A stretch of 64,000 bases of DNA, taken from assembly GCF_046119375.1 (NCBI RefSeq), contig NW_027362765.1:205840001-205904000 (forward strand). Reading direction: 5' to 3'. This DNA comes from Phyllobates terribilis. Lineage: Eukaryota. This document shows positions 8,250 through 64,000 of the stretch, in pieces; positions within the stretch are counted from its first letter, which is position 1, and every line of letters begins with the position of its first letter. A program made the translations under genes and the position numbers. Below the pieces are notes generated by a model, which ran no database searches, had not been told where the DNA came from, and saw nothing but the letters and a program-made list of their open reading frames with translations.

Positions 8250-8757
8250 AAACCAGGGGAGGAGTCCTGAGGAGATAATTTGCATATTCCCACTGCATTT
8301 TGGGGTAAGTGAAGAGTCTCCGCGAGCTCAAAGAACACTGGATTTTGGCTGTTGGAGCTGAAAAGAGGACATCGGTAAACCAGGGGAGGAGTCCTGAGGA
8401 GATAATTTGCATATTCCCACTGCATTTTGGGGTAAGTGAAGAGTCTCCGCGAGCTCAAAGAACACTGGATTTTGGCTGTTGGAGCTGAAAAGAGGACATC
8501 GGTAAACCAGGGGAGGAGTCCTGAGGAGATAATTTGCATATTCCCACTGCATTTTGGGGTAAGTGAAGAGTCTCCGCGAGCTCAAAGAACACTGGATTTT
8601 GGCTGTTGGAGCTGAAAAGAGGACATCGGTAAACCAGGGGAGGAGTCCTGAGGAGATAATTTGCATATTCCCACTGCATTTTGGGGTAAGTGAAGAGTCT
8701 CCGCGAGCTCAAAGAACACTGGATTTTGGCTGTTGGAGCTGAAAAGAGGACATCGGT
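8250..8757 (+). repeat. Four tandem 127-bp monomers forming the CR1 5' UTR
   Basis: Copies start at 8250, 8377, 8504 and 8631 and appear identical. Each contains the octamer ATTTGCAT and a GG|GTAAGT motif. Confidence 0.95.
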
Positions 8758-8830
8758 AAACCGCGCGCCTGCATTTTGAAGCTTTTTTTTAAGCTTTTTT
8801 CACTGTTTTCAGAACATTAACAATAAGAAC

Positions 8831-9793
8831 ATGGAAGAGTCCAGGAGCCATTTGGTGAGCTGCATATCCTGCTACATGTTCACAGACTTGCCAGTGGAAA
8901 AGCCAAACTTCACATGCCAGAAATGCAAGCTTGTGTCCCTGTTGGAGGAAAAGTTGCGAAATCTAGGAGAGAGGTTAACTACCTTGAAAATCATTAAGGA
9001 AGGTGAAGAGTTCTTAGACAGAGCAGAATTATCTCTTCATGATTCAGAAAGAGAAGAAATTCGAACTGCACCTGACGAAACAGAGGAATGGAAGCATGTG
9101 ACCCACAGAAGCAGGAGGATCGAGAGGCAGTCAGCACCCATACTGCTCAGGAACCAGTACCAGGCTCTCACGCAGGAGAACCATGAAGAAATACAGCAAA
9201 ATAAGACTTTGCCAGCAATGAATAACCTTGTAAGCCCTCAGAATCCTCCTGGATGGAGAAAGAAGAATGTTGTGAAGAAAAAACGGAGAGTGGTGGTCAT
9301 GGGGGATTCCCTGTTAAGAGGAACAGAGGCCGCTATCTGCAGACCAGACATAACCTCAAGAGAAATGTGCTGTCTTCCAGGAGCAAAAATTAAAGATGTG
9401 TCTGACAGGATATCAAGACTCTTCAGACCTACAGATCACTACCCATTCCTGCTAATACATGTGGGGACAAATGACACCGCAAGAAAGGACCTGGAAACCA
9501 TCTGCAGTGACTTTGAAGACTTAGGCAAGAAAGTGAAAGAATTGGGAGCGCAGGTGGTCTTCTCATCCATCCTCCCAGTGGATGGCCATGGAACAATGAG
9601 GTGGAATAAGATTCTACAGGTGAACAACTGGCTACGTCGATGGTGCCGTCAACAAGGATTTGGATTTCTGGATCACGGAATGAATTACCTATACGATGGA
9701 CTACTTGCTAGAGATGGGATGCACCTTACGAAGACTGGAAAACATGTATTTGGAAGTCGCCTTGCTACACTCATCAGAAGAGCTTTAAACTAG
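8831..9793 (+). CDS. CR1 ORF1p (320 aa): Cys-rich/coiled-coil N-terminus plus SGNH/GDSL esterase domain
   Basis: Intact ORF with CISC...CQKC, GDSLLRG, HVGTND and DGMHL motifs, ending RALN* as is typical for CR1. Confidence 0.9.
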   Translation: MEESRSHLVSCISCYMFTDLPVEKPNFTCQKCKLVSLLEEKLRNLGERLTTLKIIKEGEEFLDRAELSLHDSEREEIRTAPDETEEWKHVTHRSRRIERQSAPILLRNQYQALTQENHEEIQQNKTLPAMNNLVSPQNPPGWRKKNVVKKKRRVVVMGDSLLRGTEAAICRPDITSREMCCLPGAKIKDVSDRISRLFRPTDHYPFLLIHVGTNDTARKDLETICSDFEDLGKKVKELGAQVVFSSILPVDGHGTMRWNKILQVNNWLRRWCRQQGFGFLDHGMNYLYDGLLARDGMHLTKTGKHVFGSRLATLIRRALN

Positions 9794-9915: not shown

Positions 9916-12702
9916 ATGGGAGGAAGAGAAACCAATCACAAACTAAAATGTTTTTATACAAATGCACAAAGCATGGGCAACAAACAAGGAGAATTGGAAC
10001 TACTAATGCAGGAAAAGGAATATGATGTCATTGGAATCACTGAAACTTGGTGGGACGATACACATGATTGGAATAAAAGGCTAAAAGGCTACAACTTATT
10101 TGCAAGAAACAGACTTGATAAATGAGGAGGTGTTGCATTGTATGTTAGAAAAGCGTATATCTGCACAGAGATTGAAGCTTCAGAGACTGGGAGTACTGTG
10201 GAAACTGTTTGGGTAAGAATACAAGGAGAGAACAACGGAAAGGACACCATTGTAGGCATTTACTACAGGCCACCTGGGCAAGCTGAAGATATGGATGAAC
10301 TCTTTATGTATCAAATGACCAAGTTCTCCAAAAAATATGACGTAGTGGTCATGGGAGATTTCAACTATCCAGACATTTGTTGGGAATCTCTCTCAAGTAA
10401 AACTAACAGGTCAAGCAAATTCTTATCCTCTCTTGCTGACAACTTTATCTTCCAAAAGGTAGGGGAGTAAACAAGGGGATCTGCTACTTTGGATCTAATC
10501 CTAATAAACAGGGAGGAAATGGTTGAGGAGGTAAAGGTGGCTGGGACCCTAGGAGGCAGCGATCATGCTATTATAGAATTTTGGATAACTAGAGGAGGAA
10601 GACATGTGAAGACTCAAACTTCAAGGTTAGATTTTAGAAAGGCAGATTTTAAGAGACTCAGAAAGAGAATAGGAGGGATCCAATGGCTGGATGTCCTTAA
10701 GGACAAAAATGTCCAGGAAGGATGGGAAATTTTTAAAAATGAGATTCTCAAAGCACAATCGTTAACAATCCCGAAAAGTAGGAAGAATGGGAAGCATTTA
10801 AGGAAACCAGGATGGATGAACACAGAACTTAAACACATGCTAAAAAGAAAGAAAGAAATGTTTATTAAATGGAAAGAGGGAGGCATATCTAAAGAAGATT
10901 ATAATGCAGTCTGCAGATCCTGCAGGGCACGTATCAGGTTAGCTAAAGCGGACAATGAATTAAGGCTTGCAAGAGATGTCAAAAGCAATAAAAAAGGATT
11001 TTGGGGGTATGTCAAAAGTAAAAGAAAAGTCAAAGATGCTATAGGATTTTTACAGGATGAAAATGGAGAAATGGTAAGAGAGGATGTTGAGAAGGCCGAA
11101 CTTTTTAATTCCTATTTTGCATCTGTTTTCTCTCAGAAAGAAAATGTAACATCAACTGATCTTCACTGTCCTTTTAAAGGAATAGAGGAATCCAAGTTAT
11201 CTGTAAACAGAAAGATTGTGAGGGAATATTTAGCTAACATAAATGAGTTCAAGTCTCCAGGTCCAGATGAATTACACCCCAGAGTACTGAAGGAGATCGT
11301 AGAAGAAATTTTAGAACCACTCTCCATAATCTTTGAAAATTCTTGGAGAACAGGAGAAGTCCCAGAAGACTGGAGAAGAGCAAATGTTGTTCCTATGTTC
11401 AAAAAGGGGAAGAAGGTGGACCCAGGGAACTATAGGCCGGTGAGTCTGACTTCTATACCAGGAAAGATCTTTGAACAAATTATTAAACAACATGTATGTA
11501 AGTAAATGGATAAGAATGAAGTGATTAATCAGAGTCAGCATGGGTTTGTAACTAACAAGTCATGTCAGACTAACTTAATTTCCTTCTATGACAGAATCAC
11601 TGACTGGGTGGATCAGGGAAATGCTGTAGATATAGTATATCTTGACTTCAGCAAAGCATTTGACAAAGTATCTCACACCATCCTTATTGAAAAAATGACC
11701 AAGTATGCAATGGACCAGGCAACTGTTAGGTGGATTCATAACTGGCTTAGTGATCGGACTCAAAGGGTGGTTGTAAATGGCTTCACATCCAGCTGGATGA
11801 ATGTCTCAAGTGGGGTACCACAGGGCTCCGTCCTGGGACCTGTATTGTTCAACATCTTTATCAATGATTTAGATGAAGGAATTGAGGGTAAACTGATTAA
11901 ATTTGCTGATGACACAAAGCTAGGAGGGATAGCTAATACTAGAGAAGAGAGAGAGAGGATTCAAAAAGACCTAAATAAACTGGAGCAGTGGGCAGCAACC
12001 AACAGAATGGTTTTTAACAGGGAAAAATGCAAAGTACTACATCTGGGCAATAAAAATGAAAAAAGCATATACAGAATGGGAGGAATAGAGCTAAGCAACA
12101 GTACATGTGAAAAAGACTTAGGTATACTAATAGATCATAGACTGAACATGAGTCAACAGTGTGATGCAGCAGCAAAAAAGGCAAATACAATTCTGGGATG
12201 TATTAACAGAAGCATACAGTCTAGATCACGTGAAGTCATTATCGGTCTTTACTCCTCTTTGGTCAGACCTCATCTGGAATACTGTGTACAGTTTTGGGCA
12301 CCACATTTTAAAAAAGACATAGACAAACTAGAGCAAGTTCAGAGAAGAGCGACCAGAATGGTGACTGGTCTGCAAACCATGTCCTATGAGGAACGGTTGC
12401 AGGATTTGGGAATGTTTAGCTTGCAAAAAAGAAGACTGAGAGGAGACTTAATAGCTGTCTACAAATATGTCAAGGGCTGTCACATTGTAGAAGGATCATC
12501 TTTATTCTCATTTGCACAAGGAAAGACTAGAAGCAATGGGATGAAACTAAATGGGAGGAGACACAGATTAGATATTAGAAAAAACTTTTTGACAGTTAGG
12601 GTGATTAATGAGTGGAACAGGCTGCCACGAGAGGTGGTGAGTTCCCCTTCAATAGACGTCTTCAAACAGAGGCTGGACAGACATCTGTCTGAGATGATCT
12701 AG
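9916..12702 (+). pseudogene. CR1 ORF2 (APE endonuclease + reverse transcriptase) with three in-frame stops
   Basis: Four ORF-track pieces share one frame. APE motifs YTNAQS, GITETWW, MGDFN and SDH are present, as are RT motifs GVPQGSVLGP and FADD. Stops fall at 10123, 10468 and 11503, with no frameshifts. Confidence 0.95.
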
Positions 12703-26448: not shown

Positions 26449-26532
26449 TTAATAAAACAACTGTAATATTAATGGCACGTTGTAGCTGGAGTCACTGCTA
26501 CAGATTTTGGTGTTTGGAGATTGTGGTGTCTC

Positions 26533-29169
26533 AAGAAAGCACATTAGAGGAGAAAGTGGACCCATTGGGACTCCATGAACATCCACCAAGAAGGCACCAT
26601 AGAGAAGAAAATGGACCCATTGGGGCTCCATGAACCACCACCAAGAAAGTACCATAGAGAAGAAAATGGACTTATTGGGACTCTATGAACCACCACCAAG
26701 AAAGCTCCATAGAGAAGAAAATGGACCCATTAGGACTTCATGAACCACCACCAAGAAAGCACCATAGAGAAAAAAATGGACCTATTAGGACTTCATGAAC
26801 CACCACCAAGAAAGCACTATAGAGAATAAAATGGACCTATTGGGACTCCATGAACCACCACCAAGAAAACACTATAGAGAAGAAAATGGACTTATTGGGA
26901 CTCCATGAACCACCACCAAGAAAGCACCATAGAGAAGAAAATGGACCCATTAGGACTTCATGAACCACCACCAAGAAAGCACTATAGAGAAGAAAATTGA
27001 CTTATTGGGACTCGATGAACCACCACCAAGAAAGCACCATAGAGAAGAAAATGGACCTATTGAGACTCAATGAATCACCACCAAAAAAGCACCATAGAGA
27101 AGAAAATGGACCCACTGGGACTCCATGAACCACCACCAGGAAAGCACCATAGAGAAGAAAATGGACCCATTGGGACTCCATGAACCACCACCAAGAAAGC
27201 ACCATAGAGAAGAAAATGGACCCATTGGGGCTCCATGAACCACCACCAAGAAAGTACCATAGAGAAGAAAATGGACTTATTGGGACTCGATGAACCACCA
27301 CCAAGAAAGTACCATAGAGAAGAAAATGGACTTATTGGGACTCGATGAACCACCACCAAGAAAGCACGATAGAGAAGAAAATGGACCCACTGGGACTTCA
27401 TGAACCACCACCAGGAAAGCACCATAGAGAAGAAAATGGACCCATTGGTACTCCATGAACCACCACCAAGAAAGTACCATAGAGAAGAAAATGGACTTAT
27501 TGGGACTCTATGAACCACCACCAAGAAAGCACCATAGAGAAGAAAATGGACCCATTAGGACTTCATGAACCACCACCAAGAAAGCACCATAGAGAAGAAA
27601 ATGGACCCATTAGGACTTCATGAACCACCACCAAGAAAGCACCATAGACAAAAAAATGGACCTATTAGGACTTCATGAACCACCGCCAAGAAAGCACTAT
27701 AGAGAATAAAATGGACATATTGGGACTCCATGAACCACCACCAAGAAAACACTATAGAGAAGAAAATGGACTTATTGGGACTCCATGAACCACCACCAAG
27801 AAAGCACCATAGAGAAGAAAATGGACCCATTAGGACTTGATGAACCACCACCAAGAAAGCACTATAGAGTAGAAAATGGACTTATTGGGACTTGATGAAA
27901 CACCACCAAGAAAGCACCATAGAGAAGAAAATGGACCTGTTGAGACTCAATGAATCACCACCAAGAAAGCACCATAGAGAAGAAAATGGACCCACTGGGA
28001 CTCCATGAACCACCACCAGGAAAGCACCATAGAGAAGAAAATGGACCCATTGGGACTCCATGAACCACCACCAAGAAAGCACCATAGAGAAGAAAATGGA
28101 CCCATTAGGACTTCCTGAACCACCACCAAGAAAGCACTATAGAGAAGAAAATGGACCTATTGGGACTCCATGAACCACCACCAAGAAAGCACTATAGAGA
28201 AGAAAATGGACTTATTGTGACTCCATTAACCACCACCAAGAAAGCACCATAGAGAATAAAATGGACCCATTAGGACTTCATGAACCACCACCAAGAAAGC
28301 ACTATAGAGGAGAAAATGGACTTATTGGGACTCCATGAACCACCACCAAGAAAGCACCATAGAGAAGAAAATGGACCTATTGGGACTCAAGGAATCACCA
28401 CCAAGAAAGCACCATAAGAGAAGAAAATGGACTTATTGGGACTCCATGAACCACCACCAAGAAAGCACCATAGAGAAGAAAATGGACTTATTGGGACTCC
28501 ATGAACCACCACCAAGAAAGCACCATAGAGAAGAAAATGGACCCACTGGGACTCCATGAACCACCACCCGGAAAGCACCATAGAGAAGAAAATGGACCCA
28601 TTGGGACTCCATGAACCACCACCAAGAAAGCACCATAGAGAAGAAAATGGACCCATTGGGACTCCATGAACCACCACCAAGAAAGCACCATAGAGAAGAA
28701 AATGGACCCATTGGGACTCCATGAACCACCACCAAGAAAGCATTATAGAGGAGAAAATGGAGTTATTGGGACTCCATGAACCACCACCAAGAAAGCACCA
28801 TAGAGAAGAAAATGGACCTATTGGGACTCAAGGAATCACCACCAAGAAAGCACCATAAGAGAAGAAAATGGACTTATTGGGACTCCATGAACCACCACCA
28901 AGAAAGCACCATAGAGAAGAAAATGGACTTATTGGGACTCCATGAACCACCACCAAGAAAGCACCATAGAGAAGAAAATGGACCCACTGGGACTCCATGA
29001 ACCACCACCCGGAAAGCACCATAGAGAAGAAAATGGACCCATTGGGACTCCATGAGCCACCACCAAGAAAGCACCATAGAGAAGAAAATGGACCCATTGG
29101 GACTCCATGAACCACCACCAAGAAAGCACCATAGAGAAGAAAATGGACCCATTGGGACTCCATGAACCA
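26533..29169 (+). repeat. 55-bp satellite array (~48 copies) with higher-order duplications
   Basis: Unit catagagaagaaaatggacccattgggactccatgaaccaccaccaagaaagcac, period 55 (26598, 26653, 26708). Variant patterns recur at offsets 880 and 441. Confidence 0.97.
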
Positions 29170-29963
29170 CTCATATATATGGATGTATTACCAATCACAA
29201 TAGATTTTGGATGAGATAAAATTGTCACAATATAATGTCCAGATATCTCAGATAAGTCTATAGTCAGAAGACATGCATGTGTCTTTAGGAATAGTGGTAA
29301 CATCTCGTACACCATGCTGTCATTTAATGACAGTTTAAGACCATCCCCCGTTAATGACACTAATCAGCAGGATTGTGTATGATTCCCTCACTTCACATCA
29401 TTTTGTGGCTCAATCAAGCTGCTAATGAGTTGTTAATTGATAATTAAAGACATGATTCCACGACGCATGCAGTATGTGAGTTGATAGAGATGGATTATGT
29501 CAGTAAGTGGCATTTACCAGAACTTTACATATATATGTAAACTTCTAGTAAATATCATTAGCAGAAATTAGGACAAGTCTTAATAGTTTTGCCGATAACT
29601 TGCCCAATGTGTAATTCCTGAAATTACAAAGACGAAAAAAAATAATATAGTGATTATGTTTGTAAAGCACTTTACAAATCAATGGCACTATATATATGAG
29701 TAAAATAATTATTTAAATAAATAAAATATAAGATTTAATCATTGATAGCAAATTATATACATAACAAAACAGCAAATAAATAAGGCATCAAATCCACAAA
29801 GTTGATTCTAAAAGCAGTCCTGTCACTGGATTAGATAAAATAGCTTCCAAATATTTTTTGCATTTCTCTAAATCATTGTCTCAACGCGTTTCTCTAGTCT
29901 AAATTGGGGCAGTTCAACAGATGGTGATTTAATTTATAAATAAAATGGGGTCTCATTTACATA

Positions 29964-31597
<1,634 letters not shown>

Positions 31598-45470: not shown

Positions 45471-47467
45471 TGTTATGCACACGCCCGGACTGACTGGCGT
45501 GTGCGTGTTTATGTAGTGATTCCACTGTGCCATGAACCGGAGAGTGCCTGGAGGGGCGTAACTAAGTATCTGCCCGATCCGACCAAGGTGGCACGACGGC
45601 ATACGACGCCAGTGCACCAAGGAGGAACCGAGCAGAGAGACCAGGTGCTACTCCAGGACAGACCCCGGACACGGCTGTTGACCCACACAGGGGAATACAG
45701 GAACAGACTGGTAGGCTGGCACAACTGGTATGCAGGCAGGCGGGTATGCAGGCAGGGGGGTACAGGCAAGCACAGCTAGAGTGCAGACAGGGAGGCACTA
45801 GCAGGTAGGAACACAGGCGGGATAGGACCCAGTACACACTGGGACTCAGGAACAATACAGGCAGAGGGGTACAGGCAAGCACAGCTAGAGTGCAGACAGG
45901 GAGGCACTAGCAGGTAGGGACACTGGCGGGATAGGACCCAGTACACACTGGGACTCAGGAACAGAACCACAGATGTGGCGGACAAACACAGCAGAGTGAG
46001 GCCGCCCAGAGAGGTGAGCGAGAACAGGGCAGGACAAAGCCGCCTGGAGCGGTGAGCAAGAGTAGAGCAGGACAAGGCCGCCAGGAGCGGTGAGCAAAGG
46101 GTCAGAGCTGAGCGAGACTGCCGGAGCAGTGAGCAAGAGTGGAGCAAGACGAGACCGCCTGGAGCGGTGAGCAAGAGTGGAGCAAGACTGCCGGAGCAGT
46201 GAGCAAAAGGATAACAGCGGAGCGAGACTGCCGGAGCAGTGAGCAAAAGGGTCAGAGCGGAGCAAGGCTGCCGGAGCAGCGAGCAAAGGAGTCAGAGCAG
46301 GCTAGAACCGCCGGAGCGGTAAGCAAAGGAGTCAGAGCAGGCTAGAACCGCCGGAGCGGTGAGCAAAGGAGTCAGAGCAGGCTAGAACCGCCGGAGCGGT
46401 GAGCAAAGGAGTCAGAGCAGGCTAGAACCGCCGGAGCGGTGAGCAAAGGAGTCAGAGCAGGCAAGGCTGAGCAGGGGGGACAGGGCTCTGTTCACACGGA
46501 ACAGACAGGAAGGGAAAGGCAGAGCCAGATACCCACAGGGTACTTGCAGTGAAGTAGCGAGTGGACCACAAACTCACAAACGGGAGTACAGAGACAACAA
46601 GCAGGAGTTAGGTACGAGTTCAGACTCTGCAGAAAAAGGAAGGGAACGGACATAGAGGCAAAACAGGTAAAGGATAGGAGAGAGTTCAGACTGGAACTGA
46701 GTGTATGGAGGAGACCGACACTGCAGCGGAATACAGGAGCGGGTCTGGGAATACGGCCCCCAGAGAGGCAGGATGAACAGGCAAGGAGCGTGTTCAGACA
46801 GGACAGACAAGATACAGGAGCGGGTCTAGGTAATCGGCCCCTAGAAGGCAGGAGGAACAGGCTAGGAGCGTGTTCAGACAGGACAGACAAGATACCAGAG
46901 CGGGTCTAGATAATCAGCCCCTAGAAGGCGGGAGGAACAGGCTAGGAGCGTGTTCAGACAGGCCTGGAAATACAGCCTCCAGGATAGGCAGACAAGAGAA
47001 CACAGACAGGACTCAGTTCAGACACGGGAACTGATACCGCAAGGCAGGAGACATAGACAGGACTCAGTTCAGACACGGGAACTGAAACCGCAAGGCAGGA
47101 GACAGACAGGACTCAGTTCAGACACGGGAACAGATACCGCAAAGCAGGAGACAAAGAACGGGACCTGGCACCTTCAGAGTGCAAGCACACACTGAAAGAA
47201 ACACTATGCTCAGGCAGGGATAGATGGGAGCAGCTGAGCTATATACCAGGTGACAGACAGCAATAGGCTGAGGACGCACAAGGGGTGTGACCCACAGCAG
47301 GTACAAAAAGCAGGAAGTGATCGGGCGCCGCCCTTAAGCAGCAGAAGCAGACACAAACAGACAGCATGGAGGGAAGCCAGAGAGACATTCTGGACTGGAG
47401 ATCAAGTGCGCGCTCTTGCACAGTGGGAGATGGACCACCATGCAAGGACGCCGCCAGGTATGTTACA
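45471..47467 (-). repeat. 3' LTR (1997 bp)
   Basis: Direct repeat of 49478-51594. Contains internal 109-, 40-, 80- and ~49-bp tandem arrays. Confidence 0.95.
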
Positions 47468-49338
47468 GTACCCCCCCCCTTACGCCCCCTCTTCTTCAGG
47501 CCTGCCAGAATCTTCCGCAGGGAATTCGAGGACCAGTCGTTCACTTCAAGGAGATCACTTCCACTGTCCACAGGAAAAACTGATCTCATCTGGTTAGCTA
47601 GGATGCTACCTCCTATCCAGCCATCCTCAGCAACAGACGAAACGGGTGGAGTACCAGGAACAGCACACAAGGAAGTCTCTCTCCACATATTTTCAGGTGG
47701 CACCCCAGAGGGTACAGGAGACAACTGGAAGTCCTTCACTGGGTTGGAGGGGGACAGAGACTTGAGGGTAATCTCTGCTTCGAGGTACATCTTGTCAAGC
47801 TTACAGGAAGAAATAGACGGGTTATCAGGTACATAATGAGGAAAAGTCACTGTCTCTTTGTTATCTGGTGGTACCCCGGAGGATTCAGGAAACAACTGGA
47901 GGTCCCCCGCCGGGTCAGAAGAGTGCAGAGGCTCAGAGAAAACATCTGCTTCAGAGTACACTAGGTCGGGCTCACTGGACGAAGCAGGCGAGGTATCGGG
48001 TACCGAGTATAGGAAAGTCTCTGTCCATTCACCACCAGGTGGCACCCCGAAGGGTTCTGGAGACAACTGGCGGTCCTCCGCCTGGTCAGAGGGGTGTAGA
48101 GACTCACGGGTAACCTCTGCTTCAGAGTACACTAGGTCGGACTCACTGGACGAAGCAAGCGAGGTATCAGATCCAGGATATAGGAAAGTCTCTGTCCATT
48201 CACCACCAGGTGGCACCCAGAAGGGTTCTGGAGAAAACTGGAGGTCCTCCGCCTGGTCGGAGGGGTGTAGAGACTCGGGAGTAACCTCTGCTTCGGAGTA
48301 CACTAGGTTGGACTCACTGGACGAAGCGAGCGAGGTATCAGGTACAGAGTATAGGAGAGTCTCTGTCCTTTCGCTACCAGGTAGCACCCCGAAGGGTTCA
48401 GGAGACAACTGGAGGTCCTCCGCCTGGTCGGAGGGGTGTAGAGACTCGGGGGTAACTACCACTTTGGGGTACCCTTTGTCAGGCTCACAGGACGAAGCGG
48501 ACAAAGTATTGAGTACCGGGTGTAGAGAAGTCTCTCTCCATTTGTCATCGAGTGGTATCCCGGAGGATTCAGGAGGCAACAGGGGGTCCTCCACCAGGTA
48601 GCAGAGGTGCACAGACTCTGAGGTAACCACAGCTTTGGAGCATCCTTGGACATGCACACCGGTAAAAGTGGGTGAAGCATCTGATGCCGGGTGCAGGAAG
48701 TTCTCCTGTGTGGAGTCTGGATGGGCAGAAGTCTCTTCGGGCAGGAGAACTGGTGCACTACCCACGCACATTACCAGTTGGGGCTTCTCCAGGATACAGG
48801 GAGATGAAGCTTCAGTAGGGACTTCAAGGTTGGGGTCAGGAGGTCTCAGGGAGGACAGACCCTGGCGTGACGGCTTGCCTCTACGTCTAGCACGTCTGGA
48901 CTGCCTCTTGAGGTTGGGAGAAGTATTCCGGAAAGCGTAGTCACCCTGTGAGGATTCTGGGTGGGCAGTAGTCTCATTGGGCTGGAGGACTATTGCGCTA
49001 CCCACACACATTACCCGTCGGGGCTGCTCCGGGATATTGGGAAGTGAAGCTTCAGCAGGGGCTTCAGGGTTAGGGTCCTCGAAGACCATACGAAAGGCCA
49101 CCAGGAAGGCCTGCAGGTCAAGGACGACAGGATCCCATGCTTCCCATAGGGGGGTGACCCATTTCAAGGCATCACCCGCTAGGTAGTCAATCATAAAGGC
49201 CACTTTAGCCCAATCTGAAGGAAAATAGAGAGGGTAGGCCTTAAAGTGTAGCATGCATTGCTCCACAAATGCACGACACTGTCTTGGATCCCCATAGTAA
49301 CGTGGCGGATCCGCAGGAACGAGAGCTGATAGATCCAT
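47239..49338 (-). CDS. 699-aa ORF: Ty3/Gypsy Gag capsid N-domain (PEG10/RTL/DUF4939-like), acidic Pro/Ser repeats and a degenerate integrase-chromodomain tail
   Basis: PPRYYGDPRQCRAFVEQC...AKVAFMIDYLAGDALKWVTPLWE...FLVAFRMVFEDP; six ~57-aa repeats (171-bp period at 47946, 48117, 48288); ends KKRGRKGGGTVT across the PPT and continues into the 3' LTR. Confidence 0.72.
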   Translation of the reverse strand: MDLSALVPADPPRYYGDPRQCRAFVEQCMLHFKAYPLYFPSDWAKVAFMIDYLAGDALKWVTPLWEAWDPVVLDLQAFLVAFRMVFEDPNPEAPAEASLPNIPEQPRRVMCVGSAIVLQPNETTAHPESSQGDYAFRNTSPNLKRQSRRARRRGKPSRQGLSSLRPPDPNLEVPTEASSPCILEKPQLVMCVGSAPVLLPEETSAHPDSTQENFLHPASDASPTFTGVHVQGCSKAVVTSESVHLCYLVEDPLLPPESSGIPLDDKWRETSLHPVLNTLSASSCEPDKGYPKVVVTPESLHPSDQAEDLQLSPEPFGVLPGSERTETLLYSVPDTSLASSSESNLVYSEAEVTPESLHPSDQAEDLQFSPEPFWVPPGGEWTETFLYPGSDTSLASSSESDLVYSEAEVTRESLHPSDQAEDRQLSPEPFGVPPGGEWTETFLYSVPDTSPASSSEPDLVYSEADVFSEPLHSSDPAGDLQLFPESSGVPPDNKETVTFPHYVPDNPSISSCKLDKMYLEAEITLKSLSPSNPVKDFQLSPVPSGVPPENMWRETSLCAVPGTPPVSSVAEDGWIGGSILANQMRSVFPVDSGSDLLEVNDWSSNSLRKILAGLKKRGRKGGGTVTYLAASLHGGPSPTVQERALDLQSRMSLWLPSMLSVCVCFCCLRAAPDHFLLFVPAVGHTPCASSAYCCLSPGI
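47471..47481 (-). other. Polypurine tract
   Basis: The minus strand reads AAGGGGGGGGG-TAC immediately before the 3' LTR (TGTAACA). Confidence 0.85.
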
Positions 49339-49465
49339 CTGGACGGTGCGTAATTCGCCTGGAACTCAGCTAAGGAAAAAAAAAATTTATTTATTTATTT
49401 TAATGCATGTATTCGCTGGAAAACTTCTCAGAGAGCGAAGGCCGTGGGGCTCAACGGGAACCATG

Positions 49466-49475
49466 GCCTGAGCAT
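49466..49475 (-). other. Primer-binding site, non-tRNA (self-priming type)
   Basis: Minus-strand ATGCTCAGGC lies 2 nt after the 5' LTR. It lacks the TGG start of a tRNA PBS and is complementary to LTR position 51342-51333. Confidence 0.7.
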
Positions 49476-49477
49476 GC

Positions 49478-51594
49478 TGTTATGCACACGCCCGGACTGA
49501 CTGGCGTGTGCGTGTTTATGTAGTGATTCCACTGTGCCATGAACCGGAGAGTGCCTGGAGGGGCGTAACTAAGTATCTGCCCGATCCGACCAAGGTGGCA
49601 CGACGGCATACGACGCCAGTGCACCAAGGAGGAACCGAGCAGAGAGACCAGGTGCTACTCCAGGACAGACCCCGGACACGGCTGTTGACCCACACAGGGG
49701 AATACAGGAACAGACTGGTAGGCTGGCACAACTGGTATGCAGGCAGGCGGGTATGCAGGCAGGGGGGTACAGGCAAGCACAGCTAGAGTGCAGACAGGGA
49801 GGCACTAGCAGGTAGGAACACAGGCGGGATAGGACCCAGTACACACTGGGACTCAGGAACAATACAGGCAGAGGGGTACAGGCAAGCACAGCTAGAGTGC
49901 AGACAGGGAGGCACTAGCAGGTAGGGACACTGGCGGGATAGGACCCAGTACACACTGGGACTCGGGAACAGAACCACAGATGTGGCGGACAAACACAGCA
50001 GAGTGAGGCCGCCCAGAGAGGTGAGCGAGAACAGGGCAGGACAAAGCCGCCTGGAGCGGTGAGCAAGAGTAGAGCAGGACAAGGCCGCCAGGAGCGGTGA
50101 GCAAAGGGTCAGAGCTGAGCGAGACTGCCGGAGCAGTGAGCAAGAGTGGAGCAAGACGAGACCGCCTGGAGCGGTGAGCAAGAGTGGAGCAAGACTGCCG
50201 GAGCAGTGAGCAAAAGGATAACAGCGGAGCGAGACTGCCGGAGCAGTGAGCAAAAGGGTCAGAGCGGAGCAAGGCTGCCGGAGCAGCGAGCAAAGGAGTC
50301 AGAGCAGGCTAGAACCGCCAGAGCGGTAAGCAAAGGAGTCAGAGCAGGCTAGAACCGCCGGAGCGGTGAGCAAAGGAGTCAGAGCAGGCTAGAACCGCCG
50401 GAGCGGTGAGCAAAGGAGTCAGAGCAGGCTAGAACCGCCGGAGCGGTGAGCAAAGGAGTCAGAGCAGGCTAGAACCGCCGGAGCGGTGAGCAAAGGAGTC
50501 AGAGCAGGCAAGGCTGAGCAGGGGGGACAGGGCTCTGTTCACACGGAACAGACAGGAAGGGAAAGGCAGAGCCAGATACCCACAGGGTACTTGCAGTGAA
50601 GTAGCGAGTGGACCACAAACTCACAAACGGGAGTACAGAGACAACAAGCAGGAGTTAGGTACGAGTTCAGACTCTGCAGAAAAAGGAAGGGAATGGACAT
50701 AGAGGCAAAACAGGTAAAGGATAGGAGAGAGTTCAGACTGGAACTGAGTGTATGGAGGAGACCGACACTGCAGCGGAATACAGGAGCGGGTCTGGGAATA
50801 CGGCCCCCAGAGAGGCAGGATGAACAGGCAAGGAGCGTGTTCAGACAGGACAGACAAGATACAGGAGCGGGTCTAGGTAATCGGCCCCTAGAAGGCAGGA
50901 GGAACAGGCTAGGAGCGTGTTCAGACAGGACAGACAAGATACCGGAGCGGGTCTAGGTAATCGGCCCCTAGAAGGCGGGAGGAACAGGCTAGGAGCGTGT
51001 TCAGACAGGACAGACAAGATACCGGAGCGGGTCTAGATAATCGGCCCCTAGAAGGCGGGAGGAACAGGCTAGGAGCGTGTTCAGACAGGCCTGGAAATAC
51101 AGCCTCCAGGATAGGCAGACAAGAGAACACAGACAGGACTCAGTTCAGACACGGGAACTGATACCGCAAGGCAGGAGACATAGACAGGACTCAGTTCAGA
51201 CACGGGAACTGAAACCGCAAGGCAGGAGACAGACAGGACTCAGTTCAGACACGGGAACAGATACCGCAAAGCAGGAGACAAAGAACGGGACCTGGCACCT
51301 TCAGAGTGCAAGCACACACTGAAAGAAACACTATGCTCAGGCAGGGATAGATGGGAGCAGCTGAGCTATATACCAGGTGACAGACAGCAATAGGCTGAGG
51401 ACGCACAAGGGGTGTGACCCACAGCAGGTACAAAAAGCAGGAAGTGATCGGGCGCCGCCCTTAAGCAGCAGAAGCAGACACAAACAGACAGCATGGAGGG
51501 AAGCCAGAGAGACATTCTGGACAGGAGAACAAGTGCGCGCTCTTGCACAGTGGGAGATGAACCACCATGCAAGGACGCCGCCAGGTATGTTACA
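49478..51594 (-). repeat. 5' LTR (2117 bp)
   Basis: Differs from the 3' LTR by one extra 40-mer, one extra 80-mer and about 8 substitutions (manual count). Confidence 0.95.
51367..51372 (-). promoter_or_regulatory. Putative LTR TATA box (predicted TSS near 51342)
   Basis: TATATA lies ~220 bp inside the LTR start on the minus strand, 30 nt upstream of the PBS-complementary segment. Confidence 0.6.
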
Positions 51595-57761: not shown

Positions 57762-59018
57762 TATACTCTACAATGCCATTCACTTCCTGCTTGCTAAAGC
57801 GCTTGCCAGAGGCAAAGGAGGGAATATGTGAGTTGCATTTGATACTAGTACTGCCAGGATGGATGCTGCCAGCACTGATATTATTTTTTTTTCATATTGC
57901 CCTGCCACGTCCATCACCCGTGCCATGTTTGGGTTTATCATACATTTTGGACAAAAGTATAACTTTTAATTTGTTTATAAACTTTGTTAACAAACTTTAA
58001 AGTTCTCCCACCCTTGACAAATTAACTTAACCATAAATAAAGAATTCACTATGTAATTATATGTACAAAAAGTAATTTGCGGCAACGGCCAGCAGTTGAA
58101 CGTGACTAGTCAAACGGTTGCAAAACCTTAACCTCTTGTGTTTTTGTTTTTCATTTTTTTCTCTTAAATAACGACATTCAACCAAAATTAAAAGTAATTT
58201 AATGAAACCTAAAGTGCTAGGTTGCAAAGTTGCTACACGTAGGCTCACTATTGGTATCAAGCATGTGTCAACAACAGCAGTTTGGTTGTGGTGTGTACGA
58301 TATCTAGAGTCGACAATTAAAAAATAAGTAAGTTCCAAAAATAAAAAGGAGAACTGATATGTTAAAGGTGAAGAAAAAGAAAAGACCATGTGCCTTAATA
58401 AATAGGATGGGACTAGAAAATCCAGGAAGAATGAAGCATTGGAGCAATAAAGAGGGTTCAACAAGTTATTTAAAACAACGCATGCACTTTACTAGCTAAA
58501 CACTTAAATAAATAAAATCCACATGCCTTTACAAAATAGGATGGTACCAGAAAATCTAGATAGAATCACATCCCAACAGCAAGCACATGCAACTGGCTTC
58601 GGTATTTGGGTAGCGTGTGTACACATCTAATATTAGACTATTGGAGCAATGAAGTGGGCGCAAAATATTTTAAACAACACACACACTTTGGTAGGTAAAC
58701 ATGTGTGCTAAAGTTACAGAATTAAGGAGATTTCTCTTTAAAAAAAATGCCGCATCTCAAAACACAGTTATCGCACTTCCATGTAAACAAAAAAAACAAG
58801 CCTTGAATTCAGAATTTGGATTTAGTTGGACAATCTGCAACAAATAGTTTAATACTACCCCTGCTTGCTGGCACTATTTGAAAAAAACAACTATTAGGGT
58901 ACTGTTGCTGCAATATATTATAGATGTATTAATTCACAGTCTCATTCTGATTTGTGATGATGAGACGTTACAACAGTTCACGGTACATCACTTGAATCTT
59001 GGATTTCTATTCACAGAC

Positions 59019-59472
59019 TATGCAAATTGCCTCTTCAGAGAAAAACAGGACTTCTACTCTATAGCGCCACCCATTGGAAGCAGCAATCCTACAAGTCACA
59101 ATCAACCCTTTAACGAGTCGTACAATATGACTTAGGATAAAAGCCAAATTAGCATCTCAATTTGCAGACACGGTGTTTAGGGCTCTTGGCCCTACTCAGT
59201 GCAAAGTATGAGCACTGATTTGGCTAGATGAGAGGCTCTGGACTGAGGTCTAAGGGGTAACGTTTCTCCTTATGGAGAGTGACACACCAGCGCTGGCACA
59301 TCAAGGTAAGTAAGCTTATTCGCCATGCAATGCTCCTCTGGGAAATTTAATATGCAAATTGCCTCTTCAGAGAAAAGAGGACTTGTACTCTATAGCGCCA
59401 CCTATTGGAAGCAGCAATCCTACAAGTCACAATCAACCCTTTAACGAGTCGTGCAATATGACTTAGGATAAA
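59019..59472 (-). mobile_element. Retrozyme / Penelope-like pLTR-derived repeat: 332-bp monomer, ~1.4 copies
   Basis: 59019-59141 is directly repeated at 59351-59472 (period 332). It contains a hammerhead fold and octamers. Confidence 0.75.
59142..59225 (-). ncRNA. Minimal type I hammerhead ribozyme, core-mutated
   Basis: Minus strand: stem I uuugca - CUGAGUA - stem II GGGC/caaga/GCCC - UAAA - stem III CAC c GUG - UC^ugcaaa, with stem I extended by agccaaau/auuuggcu. Consensus G8 and G12 are both U. Confidence 0.75.
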
Positions 59473-62628: not shown

Positions 62629-64000
62629 ATGGGCAATGTGAGTGTCAGGGGACGGGGAAGCAGACGTGATGGTGATGGTGCATGCAGAGGCTGAGCGAAT
62701 GGCCAAGCTGAAATTGTGCCATAACAAGCACCCACATCTTGTCACCCGGCCTTCCTGTCCCAATTACTAGGTGACCGCAGCACACCACTATTGAACCCAG
62801 AGCAGTGTCGAAAGGTTGTTGATTGGATAGCAGATAATGCTTCCAGTCATTTTGCCACCACCACCACCACCCTTTCTTTCACATGGTCAAGTTTCAGTAG
62901 CCGTGAGTCTGGACCGCATATTCCTCACCCTGATACTCCTTCCTCCCACCATGCCGAGTGCCCGGAGACAACTGATCCCACACTTGGACACTCCGAAGAG
63001 CTGTTCACTTTTCCATTTATAGATTCGGGCCTCTCAACCGACCCGTTTCAAGCAGGGCAAGAGAAGATCGCATGTAGCGATGCCCAAATATTTGAGCAGC
63101 CACGATCACATGAAGGCGATTGTGGGAAACTGTCACAAGAGGTGGATGATGATGAGACACAATTGCCAGAAAGTCAGGAGGAGGACCAGGGTGAGGAAGT
63201 GGAAGATGAGGTGGTGGAAGATGAAGTCTCTGACCCAACCTGGCAAGGTGACATGCAGAGCGAGGACAGCAGCACACAGTGGGAGGGAGGCATAGCACCA
63301 AAGCAGGCAGGAACAAACAGTGAAGTGGCCACAGACACAAGAAGGGCAACTGTTCCCCGGAACACAAACAAGACGGAAGTTGCCAGTACATCTGTTAGGT
63401 CTTCCCGAGTCTGTTTTTTTCTTAAAGACTGTGCAGAAAACCCCAAAAAGGCCATTTGCACTACCTGCCAGGCCACCATCAGCAGGGGTAGCAAAACTAA
63501 AAGCCTGACCATCACCAGCATGCTCAGGCACATGACAGCAAAGCACCCGACTAGGTGGGCCGAACAGTGTCTGCAGGGTGAAACCACTGCTTGTTCCGCT
63601 GTTGTGCGTGCACGCCAATCCCCTGTCCATAGCGCATGCGAAGATGACTCTCGCCCTGCACCTGTCATTGCGCACTCGCAACTACCACCATCAGCAAGCT
63701 TGTCCCAGCGCAGCATTCAGTTGTCTATACCCCAGTCATTGGAACGCAAGCACAAATACGCAGCCACCCACTCACAGGCCACACTACTAAACTCGCACCT
63801 TTCTCGAATGCTTGCGCTCGAAATGTTGCCTTTTAGGCTCGTGGAGACAGAAGATTTCCACAATCTGATGGCGGCGGCCGTCCCTTGGTCCCCAGCCGCC
63901 ACTATTTTTCCCGGTGTGCCGTCCCCGCATTACACAAGCACGTGTCCCAGAACATTAGCTGTACCCTCAACAACGCAGTTACTGGGAAGGTCCACATAAC
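62629..64000 (+). pseudogene. hAT transposase with BED zinc finger, disrupted
   Basis: The ATG at 62629 is in frame with ORF 62791 but has stops at 62692 and 62722. BED finger AICTTC...SMLRHMTAKH, then LALEMLPFRLVETEDF. A frameshift near 63885 restores VPSRHYFSRCAVPALHKHV. Confidence 0.88.

Follow-up and report, generated by a model that had tools for sequence, protein, structure and literature searches.

The window, by which we mean the whole 64,000-nt stretch of Phyllobates terribilis DNA analyzed here, carries near its end a single copy of a 332-bp non-coding repeat with a hammerhead motif on the minus strand. Unit positions (u) are counted from 59472 along that strand, which places the cut between u306 and u307. 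The features of the copy are listed below.

59019..59472 (-), complete insertion of 454 bp (1.37 retrozyme units of 332 bp), 5'-truncated, with its 3' end at the fixed site A
59351..59472 (-), redundant segment, 5' copy, 122 bp, presumably the second lap of the reverse transcript
59019..59141 (-), redundant segment, 3' copy; 59019 is the fixed 3' end A, the putative first start of reverse transcription
59015..59020 (-), putative 6-bp target duplication TAGTCT, with its partner at 59483-59478, then 5 extra bases
59393..59408 (-), CTCF-like word CCAATAGGTGGCGCTA, which we take to resemble the CTCF motif (putative binding); a similar word is found in the sister family
59352..59359 (-), octamer ATTTGCAT, marking site A and retained by the sister family
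59326..59344 (-), SPH/Staf-like word, retained by the sister family as well
59270..59282 (-), ribozyme strand, PSE-like word TCACTCTCCATAA, sharing 12 of 13 letters with the element at -70 in two host U6 genes
59243..59251 (-), site B, the family's other fixed 3' end, internal in this copy; putative second start, about 103 nt past A
59216..59221 (-), putative transcription start, predicted from PSE distances in host genes to lie about 50-55 nt before the cut
59143..59225 (-), hammerhead including the extension of helix I, predicted to form a single long rod in intact copies (z -7.2)
59161..59205 (-), type I hammerhead core with a 6-bp helix I, a 4-bp helix II and a palindromic mini helix III; cut between 59167 and 59166
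59205-59200 and 59166-59161 (-), helix I
59199-59193 (-), first core box, with T at 59194 (G8)
59192-59180 (-), helix II
59179-59176 (-), TAAA of the core, with T at 59179 (G12)
59175-59167 (-), CACCGTG-TC, mini helix III and cut side

Elsewhere in the window lie a 55-bp minisatellite of 48 copies (26532-29170), a frame that we take to be a Tc1-type transposase (30369-31109), an element in which two direct repeats of about 1.5 kb surround a 708-aa frame (45727-51281) and, presumably, a hAT-type transposase frame (62725-63999). Four identical 127-bp tandem units at 8250-8762, each with an octamer and then an SPH-like word, are a possible monomer-type 5' promoter. The plus-strand open reading frames directly after them (8780-9793, 10471-11505 and 11506-12702) presumably belong to a near-full-length CR1-type LINE, with ORF1 followed by the endonuclease/RT frames.

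A period of 332 bp with about 120 bp of terminal redundancy had been described in an earlier reading of the window made from the sequence alone (the sequence-only reading), and this was confirmed, since 59019-59141 aligns with 59351-59472 in 123 columns at 96% identity, with a period of 332 (331 past a 1-bp indel). The length of the redundancy differs between copies of the family, indicating that it is not an LTR. The window copy has 19 differences from the family majority and is an ordinary simple insertion ending at A, with a duplication of at most 6 bp, which is too short to stand above chance by itself. With 454 bp and a single broken ribozyme, it represents a dead end. On the plus strand, opposite the ribozyme strand, a change in this copy created a perfect 5' splice-donor word, AAGGTAAGT, at 59303-59311.

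The minus-strand type I hammerhead with a near-palindromic stem III proposed in the same reading proved to have the expected layout, and its core is intact in relatives, where the motif is canonical (6-bp helix I, CUGAYGA). A relaxed-pattern search of the window gave three matches, and this hammerhead alone was G+C-stemmed with a 6-bp stem I. The Rfam check that had been suggested did not find a hammerhead either in the window copy or in an intact array; the assignment therefore rests on motif, fold and covariation. Both catalytic guanines, G8 and G12, are T in the window copy, as had been read, and further changes disrupt the extended helix I, so that the minimum-energy fold lacks the rod and the prediction of a dead ribozyme stands. 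Both guanines sit in CpG, which probably explains their decay. The window copy is thus decayed, predicted to be inactive and without evident function. Intact copies, on the other hand, are predicted to self-cleave as dimers. The circular monomer is predicted to be stably folded (z -4.3 and -3.8), and the first nine bases of the cleaved monomer (59166-59158) have their complement at 59361-59353.

The family was then characterized in the 10.57-Gb genome. A DNA search with the unit returned 2,410 first-look candidates, the best of the 40 scored being 94-96% identical. The search for intact cores called for by the sequence-only reading gave 808 exact matches to a 33-letter pattern genome-wide and none for the reversed control, and an exact 23-letter word of the 3' end gave 3,513 and none, respectively. 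The copies are dispersed and SINE-like, not in long arrays, contrary to the satellite-like nature first supposed. Tandem arrays are short, reaching about six units at most in 138 insertions. A large satellite array was considered and found unsupported: the genome-wide counts are below those predicted from the C1 sample, leaving no room for a large array in the assembled sequence, in which the assembly could have collapsed repeats. Consecutive intact ribozymes were found as four exact cores at 332-bp spacing (C1:129892853-129893881) and as two exact cores (C1:735834698-735835061). The mean divergence of the copies from the majority is 2.2% at non-CpG and 12.8% at CpG positions, and the whole core and helix II are kept in 38 of 79 hammerheads of a set not selected for intactness. 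The proposal of a retrozyme family with active tandem copies was thus upheld for the intact cores and the tandem units, and not for the word "active".

Several properties place the family among the non-LTR retrozymes. The non-coding unit falls within 150-450 bp and has one type I hammerhead; LTR, PBS and PPT are absent; duplications exceed 4 bp; the monomer is strongly self-paired and, as a predicted fold, compatible with hammerhead formation; and the family, though not the window copy, includes tandem arrays in which two or more intact ribozymes follow one another. A sister family of 319 bp (3,052 candidates), about 80% identical, retains A, B, the octamer, the SPH-like word, the PSE and the ribozyme. 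Its helix II has a double change from C-G to G-C, and a second double change lies in the extended helix I, both read off alignments and not from a formal covariation count. Contigs at least 85% alike numbered 685, 767, 122 and 277 in four sequence runs, presumed to be RNA, from four organisms; they show that related sequence is present in other organisms and say nothing of its transcription, its strand or circles. In eight loci (L043:1984-2525, L070, L071, L117, L189, L032, L212 and L010) young copies have members of older sister families (73-86% identity) no more than about 2.5 kb away. In L189 a young copy is inserted at the A end of an older one, a hint of self-targeting.

The octamer and the SPH-like word were found at the coordinates first reported (59359-59352 and 59344-59326), 192 nt upstream of the cut where about 190 had been given. 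The snRNA-type promoter proposed from them was strengthened by the PSE-like word, which the sequence-only reading had overlooked. In the upstream regions of two distinct host U6 genes, TCACTCTCCCTAA and TAACTCTCCATAA lie at about -70, with a TATA downstream at -31; TCACTCTCCATAA is the best 13-mer match of both regions to the unit, and 1 of 1,000 shuffles was as good. No TATA was found at the U6 distance after the PSE of the unit, which points to a Pol II snRNA-type promoter with a predicted start near 59221-59216. The agreement with host genes is partial. The octamer and the PSE are 77 nt apart in the unit versus about 170 nt in the U1 and U6 genes of the host; the region upstream of host U1 matches the unit at the octamer only, and the U1 PSE and a third U6 PSE match poorly. 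Among the five host U6 loci, one (L276) is without the promoter words and another (L279) has a more distant PSE. The SPH part of the proposal fared less well, since its spacer of 5 nt is one base longer than the 4 nt of the host U6 SPH-like word, leaving that assignment unproven. The host U1 genes include a tandem array with a 1,079-bp period (G000:C1:534628252-534671568), and a U6 cluster has spacings near multiples of 450 bp (G000:C2:805655372-805818074).

Newt satellite 2 has an octamer and a PSE, and its transcripts in the ovary begin about 47 nt 5' of the cut. Its promoter is cited as an snRNA-type Pol II promoter in the accessible part of PMC2220036. As in that type of promoter, the octamer and PSE of the 332-bp unit are upstream of the ribozyme on the transcribed strand, and intact copies are likely to be transcribed from this internal snRNA-type promoter. 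The octamer may also, or instead, act as an RNA signal, as it marks end A and overlaps the complement of the 5' end of the cleaved monomer.

The ends of the insertions were determined in 90 loci chosen by the ribozyme pattern and 70 chosen by the end word, all within the first 801 Mb of contig C1. Removal of 4 and 13 loci, respectively, that repeated the insertion of another locus, and of 5 segmental duplicates, left 86 and 52 (138 insertions: 97 simple, 40 inverted and 1 complex). Of the 97 simple insertions, 82 ended at A (u113-134, directly after the octamer) and 4 at B (u218-237); among the 57 simple insertions whose loci had been chosen independently of A, 51 ended there. The inverted insertions are arranged head to head. 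Their outer ends were A and B in 26 of the 40, A and another position in 8, B and another position in 5 and two other positions in 1, and no A+A or B+B insertion was found among them. Shuffling of the 80 ends gave a mean of 13 like pairs, and zero like pairs occurred in none of 200,000 trials. A and B are separated by about 103 nt in the 332-bp unit and by about 94 nt in the sister family, where 9 of 11 distinct inverted insertions had A+B ends (30 loci, query-biased).

Flanking duplications ranged from 7 to 14 bp. Those of at least 7 bp were present at 74 of 138 insertions versus 25 of 600 mismatched flanks, and those of at least 9 bp at 52 of 138 versus 2 of 600. The flanks of the insertions are 69% A+T, compared to 56% farther out. 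Copies are mostly 0.1-3 units long, and of the 82 simple copies ending at A, 40 are longer than 340 bp. Fixed 3' ends, 5' truncation, partial tandems, an inverted 5' copy and a one-ended tail are together the signature of a Penelope-like element (PLE), which the insertion ends display with an unusually long tail, its length being the A-to-B distance instead of 30-40 bp.

Intact cores, dispersal, duplications, two fixed 3' ends, exclusive pairing of A with B, inversions, lengths greater than one unit and the PSE match are all observed in the family itself. Taken with the predicted promoter and fold, they make it probable that the family is a dispersed 332-bp non-autonomous retroelement with an snRNA-type promoter, self-cleavage as a dimer, probable RNA circles and insertion by the RT/endonuclease of a PLE, the window copy being a decayed member. 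In such an element Pol II would start about 50 nt upstream of the ribozyme and run through at least two units, and cleavage would free monomers and multimers, which would then be ligated. The PLE enzyme would nick the two strands of an A+T-rich target at points 7-14 bp apart; one of them would prime at A, and priming by its partner, where it occurs, would be at B. Synthesis would circle the unit until a random stop, giving simple A-ended copies or head-to-head A+B copies. The PSE together with two ribozymes would be regenerated only by insertions of at least about 600 bp, a length reached by 2 of 41 insertions in the length-unbiased set.

The 5' ends and the laps of the insertions bear on the nature of the template. 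The cut site was passed in 77 of 88 passes (143 segments; 7 complex loci left out). Stops within u298-314, at the cut, numbered 11 versus 5.7 expected (p 0.03, uncorrected, for one of several windows of positions), and a pile-up at the predicted transcription start was rejected, with 9 stops seen versus 9.3 expected. The sole clear stop zone was u52-68 (19 versus 7.9 expected), at the 3' foot of a long hairpin. Read-through of the cut and of the predicted start, with arrays of at most about six units, would favor circles. Laps were compared at polymorphic sites covered twice within one insertion and showing the minor allele, and 27 further loci from the DNA search were included. Laps within single insertions disagreed at 48 of 121 informative sites; of 72 informative insertions, 42 were fully concordant and 30 had at least one discordant site, 10 of them at least two. 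The background divergence between laps is 3.5%. The discordance rules out rolling around one plain monomer circle as the sole route, and there must be a contribution from template switching, from circles of more than one unit or from later insertions at the A end of an older copy (as in L189).

The mosaic haplotypes and the slight excess of 5' ends at the cut are also what would be expected if the same element, moved by the same Penelope-type enzyme, were copied from linear multimers or template-switched RNAs, circles being irrelevant to its mobility. In the accessible text of PMC11167929, moreover, the PLE of the anole used uncleaved RNA and its hammerhead was dispensable in vitro. We regard linear templates as unlikely nevertheless, since stops are missing at the predicted transcription start, long arrays are rare and the counts leave no large one in the assembly, the upstream promoter would be lost in each round of linear copying, and 42 of the 72 informative insertions are fully concordant. 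For the element copied from circles, a more specific mechanism is possible and is put forward tentatively: the template would be an RNA circle produced by the ribozyme and equipped with an snRNA-type promoter of its own, and a two-subunit Penelope-type enzyme would prime the two target strands at A and B, two different sites defined by structure and separated by about 100 nt, never using the same site twice and often using two different RNA molecules.

A partner element was sought with GIY-YIG, yielding 4,370 candidates, of which 63 were scored, and revealing a genome rich in Neptune-type PLEs. None of 30 GIY-YIG loci drawn from the scored set had a terminal repeat like the unit (best z 2.4), and the partner Penelope RT asked for by the sequence-only reading was not recovered from them. 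The abundance of these PLEs, together with PLE-like ends, inversions and tail, would suit copies that are solo pseudo-LTR fragments of an autonomous PLE, 5'-truncated and with no replicon of their own; in the accessible part of a study of Xenopus (10.64898/2026.07.22.740005), 24 of 57 retrozyme families resemble known TEs, nearly all of them PLE termini. This origin is very improbable for the 332-bp family. In 220 loci the unit was always preceded by more unit, in register and for up to six laps, and never by shared coding sequence (RT and GIY-YIG) abutting it. PLE-like fragments in the flanks belong to several families at varied distances and orientations (tblastn with a noisy query set matched 51 of the 220 loci, a figure that is not a PLE count). 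Furthermore, the canonical hammerhead of the unit, with its 6-bp helix I and CUGAYGA, differs from the variant motifs of the host Neptune termini. Most copies lie in unrelated flanks with duplications, and the view that the unit is not merely the terminus of autonomous Penelope elements was therefore maintained.

Some of the loci showed further PLE-related features. In L008:1940-2821 a Neptune-type PLE frame immediately follows an inserted family copy of like orientation that has a duplication on either side; the target was probably hit by chance. At nine loci (L139, L130, L143, L148, L142, L129, L124, L147 and L122) the 3' ends of Neptune-type PLEs, downstream of GIY-YIG, stop right after CAG/GTGAG, a word resembling a splice donor, and their hammerheads are variants in which the first core box deviates from CUGANGA. 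Other hammerhead families with a longer helix II, probably PLE terminal repeats, were seen in the flanks of L039, L004, L007 and L209.

Satellite DNA spread by DNA-level recombination, with incidental ribozyme and promoter words, would account for the tandem units and agrees with the local-amplification model proposed for retrozymes, whose mechanism is described as still open in the accessible text of 10.64898/2026.07.22.740005, but it is scarcely credible here, being contradicted by the fixed 3' ends, variable 5' ends, 7-14 bp duplications, polarized inversions and dispersal, and by ribozyme covariation between families.

The retroelement reading places the family between amphibian retrozymes and PLEs. 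Newt satellite 2 and the axolotl Rtz331 with HHR_Amex1, for which cleavage depends on dimers, resemble it in the non-coding unit of about 330 bp, the type I hammerhead with a weak palindromic helix III, the self-paired monomer and duplications of more than 4 bp, a likeness of features and not of sequence alignment (PMC7229834, accessible part). On the other hand, the copies described here are dispersed and not in arrays, their number is in the thousands compared to about 60,000 motifs in salamanders, and their fixed ends and inversions are not described for salamander retrozymes in the accessible part of PMC7229834. According to what is accessible of 10.64898/2026.07.22.740005, non-LTR retrozymes occur in all seven amphibians sampled, with 57 families in Xenopus, including REP4; the Xenopus units average 316 bp and lie as monomers along the chromosomes, PLE dependence is proposed, and only one of nine dimers was cleaved in vitro, a point against the retroelement reading favored here. 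The present family agrees with them in its amphibian host, unit size, monomers along chromosomes and proposed PLE dependence. The link to PLEs was drawn there from homology and co-occurrence; here it comes from insertion ends, without a homologous PLE having been found. Amphibian, including frog, non-LTR retrozymes are thus already known, and the 332-bp family adds a member; it or a relative may be among the Xenopus families in the supplements of that study.

For PLEs, Craig et al (PMC8557442) describe an architecture with a tail at one end only, and Frangieh et al (PMC11167929) report a protein that cuts and extends both strands of A+T-rich DNA, with reverse transcription starting at two internal sites whose distance equals the tail, as far as the accessible parts of both papers go. 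The family shares with these EN+ PLEs, including Poseidon of the anole, the partial tandems, 5' truncation, inverted 5'-truncated copy, one-ended tail, A+T-rich targets and, putatively, two internal starts of reverse transcription; it differs from them in having no ORF, in its longer tail, in its canonical hammerhead and in its octamer and PSE, where the host Neptune termini have TATA-like and polyA-like words. In the accessible parts of PMC7761336 and PMC7229834, PLEs are named only as likely mobilizers of animal retrozymes, whose repeats are without a motif identifying the partner. In the open literature covered, including PMC4209133 and PMC7761336 in their accessible parts and with most subscription papers outside it, neither an analysis of the ends of retrozyme insertions nor a PSE promoter from a frog was found; PMC5680766 had nothing relevant, and nothing relevant was found on twin priming in PLEs.

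The insertion ends tie animal retrozymes to PLE enzymes, and the strict pairing of A with B gives two exact, testable start sites. If priming at A and B proceeds as tentatively proposed, the PLE tail and the inverted ends would be the footprint of an asymmetric dimer, and the 332-nt RNA would be the smallest natural substrate for testing asymmetric A/B priming. The promoter of octamer and PSE would carry the design of newt satellite 2 into a second amphibian lineage.
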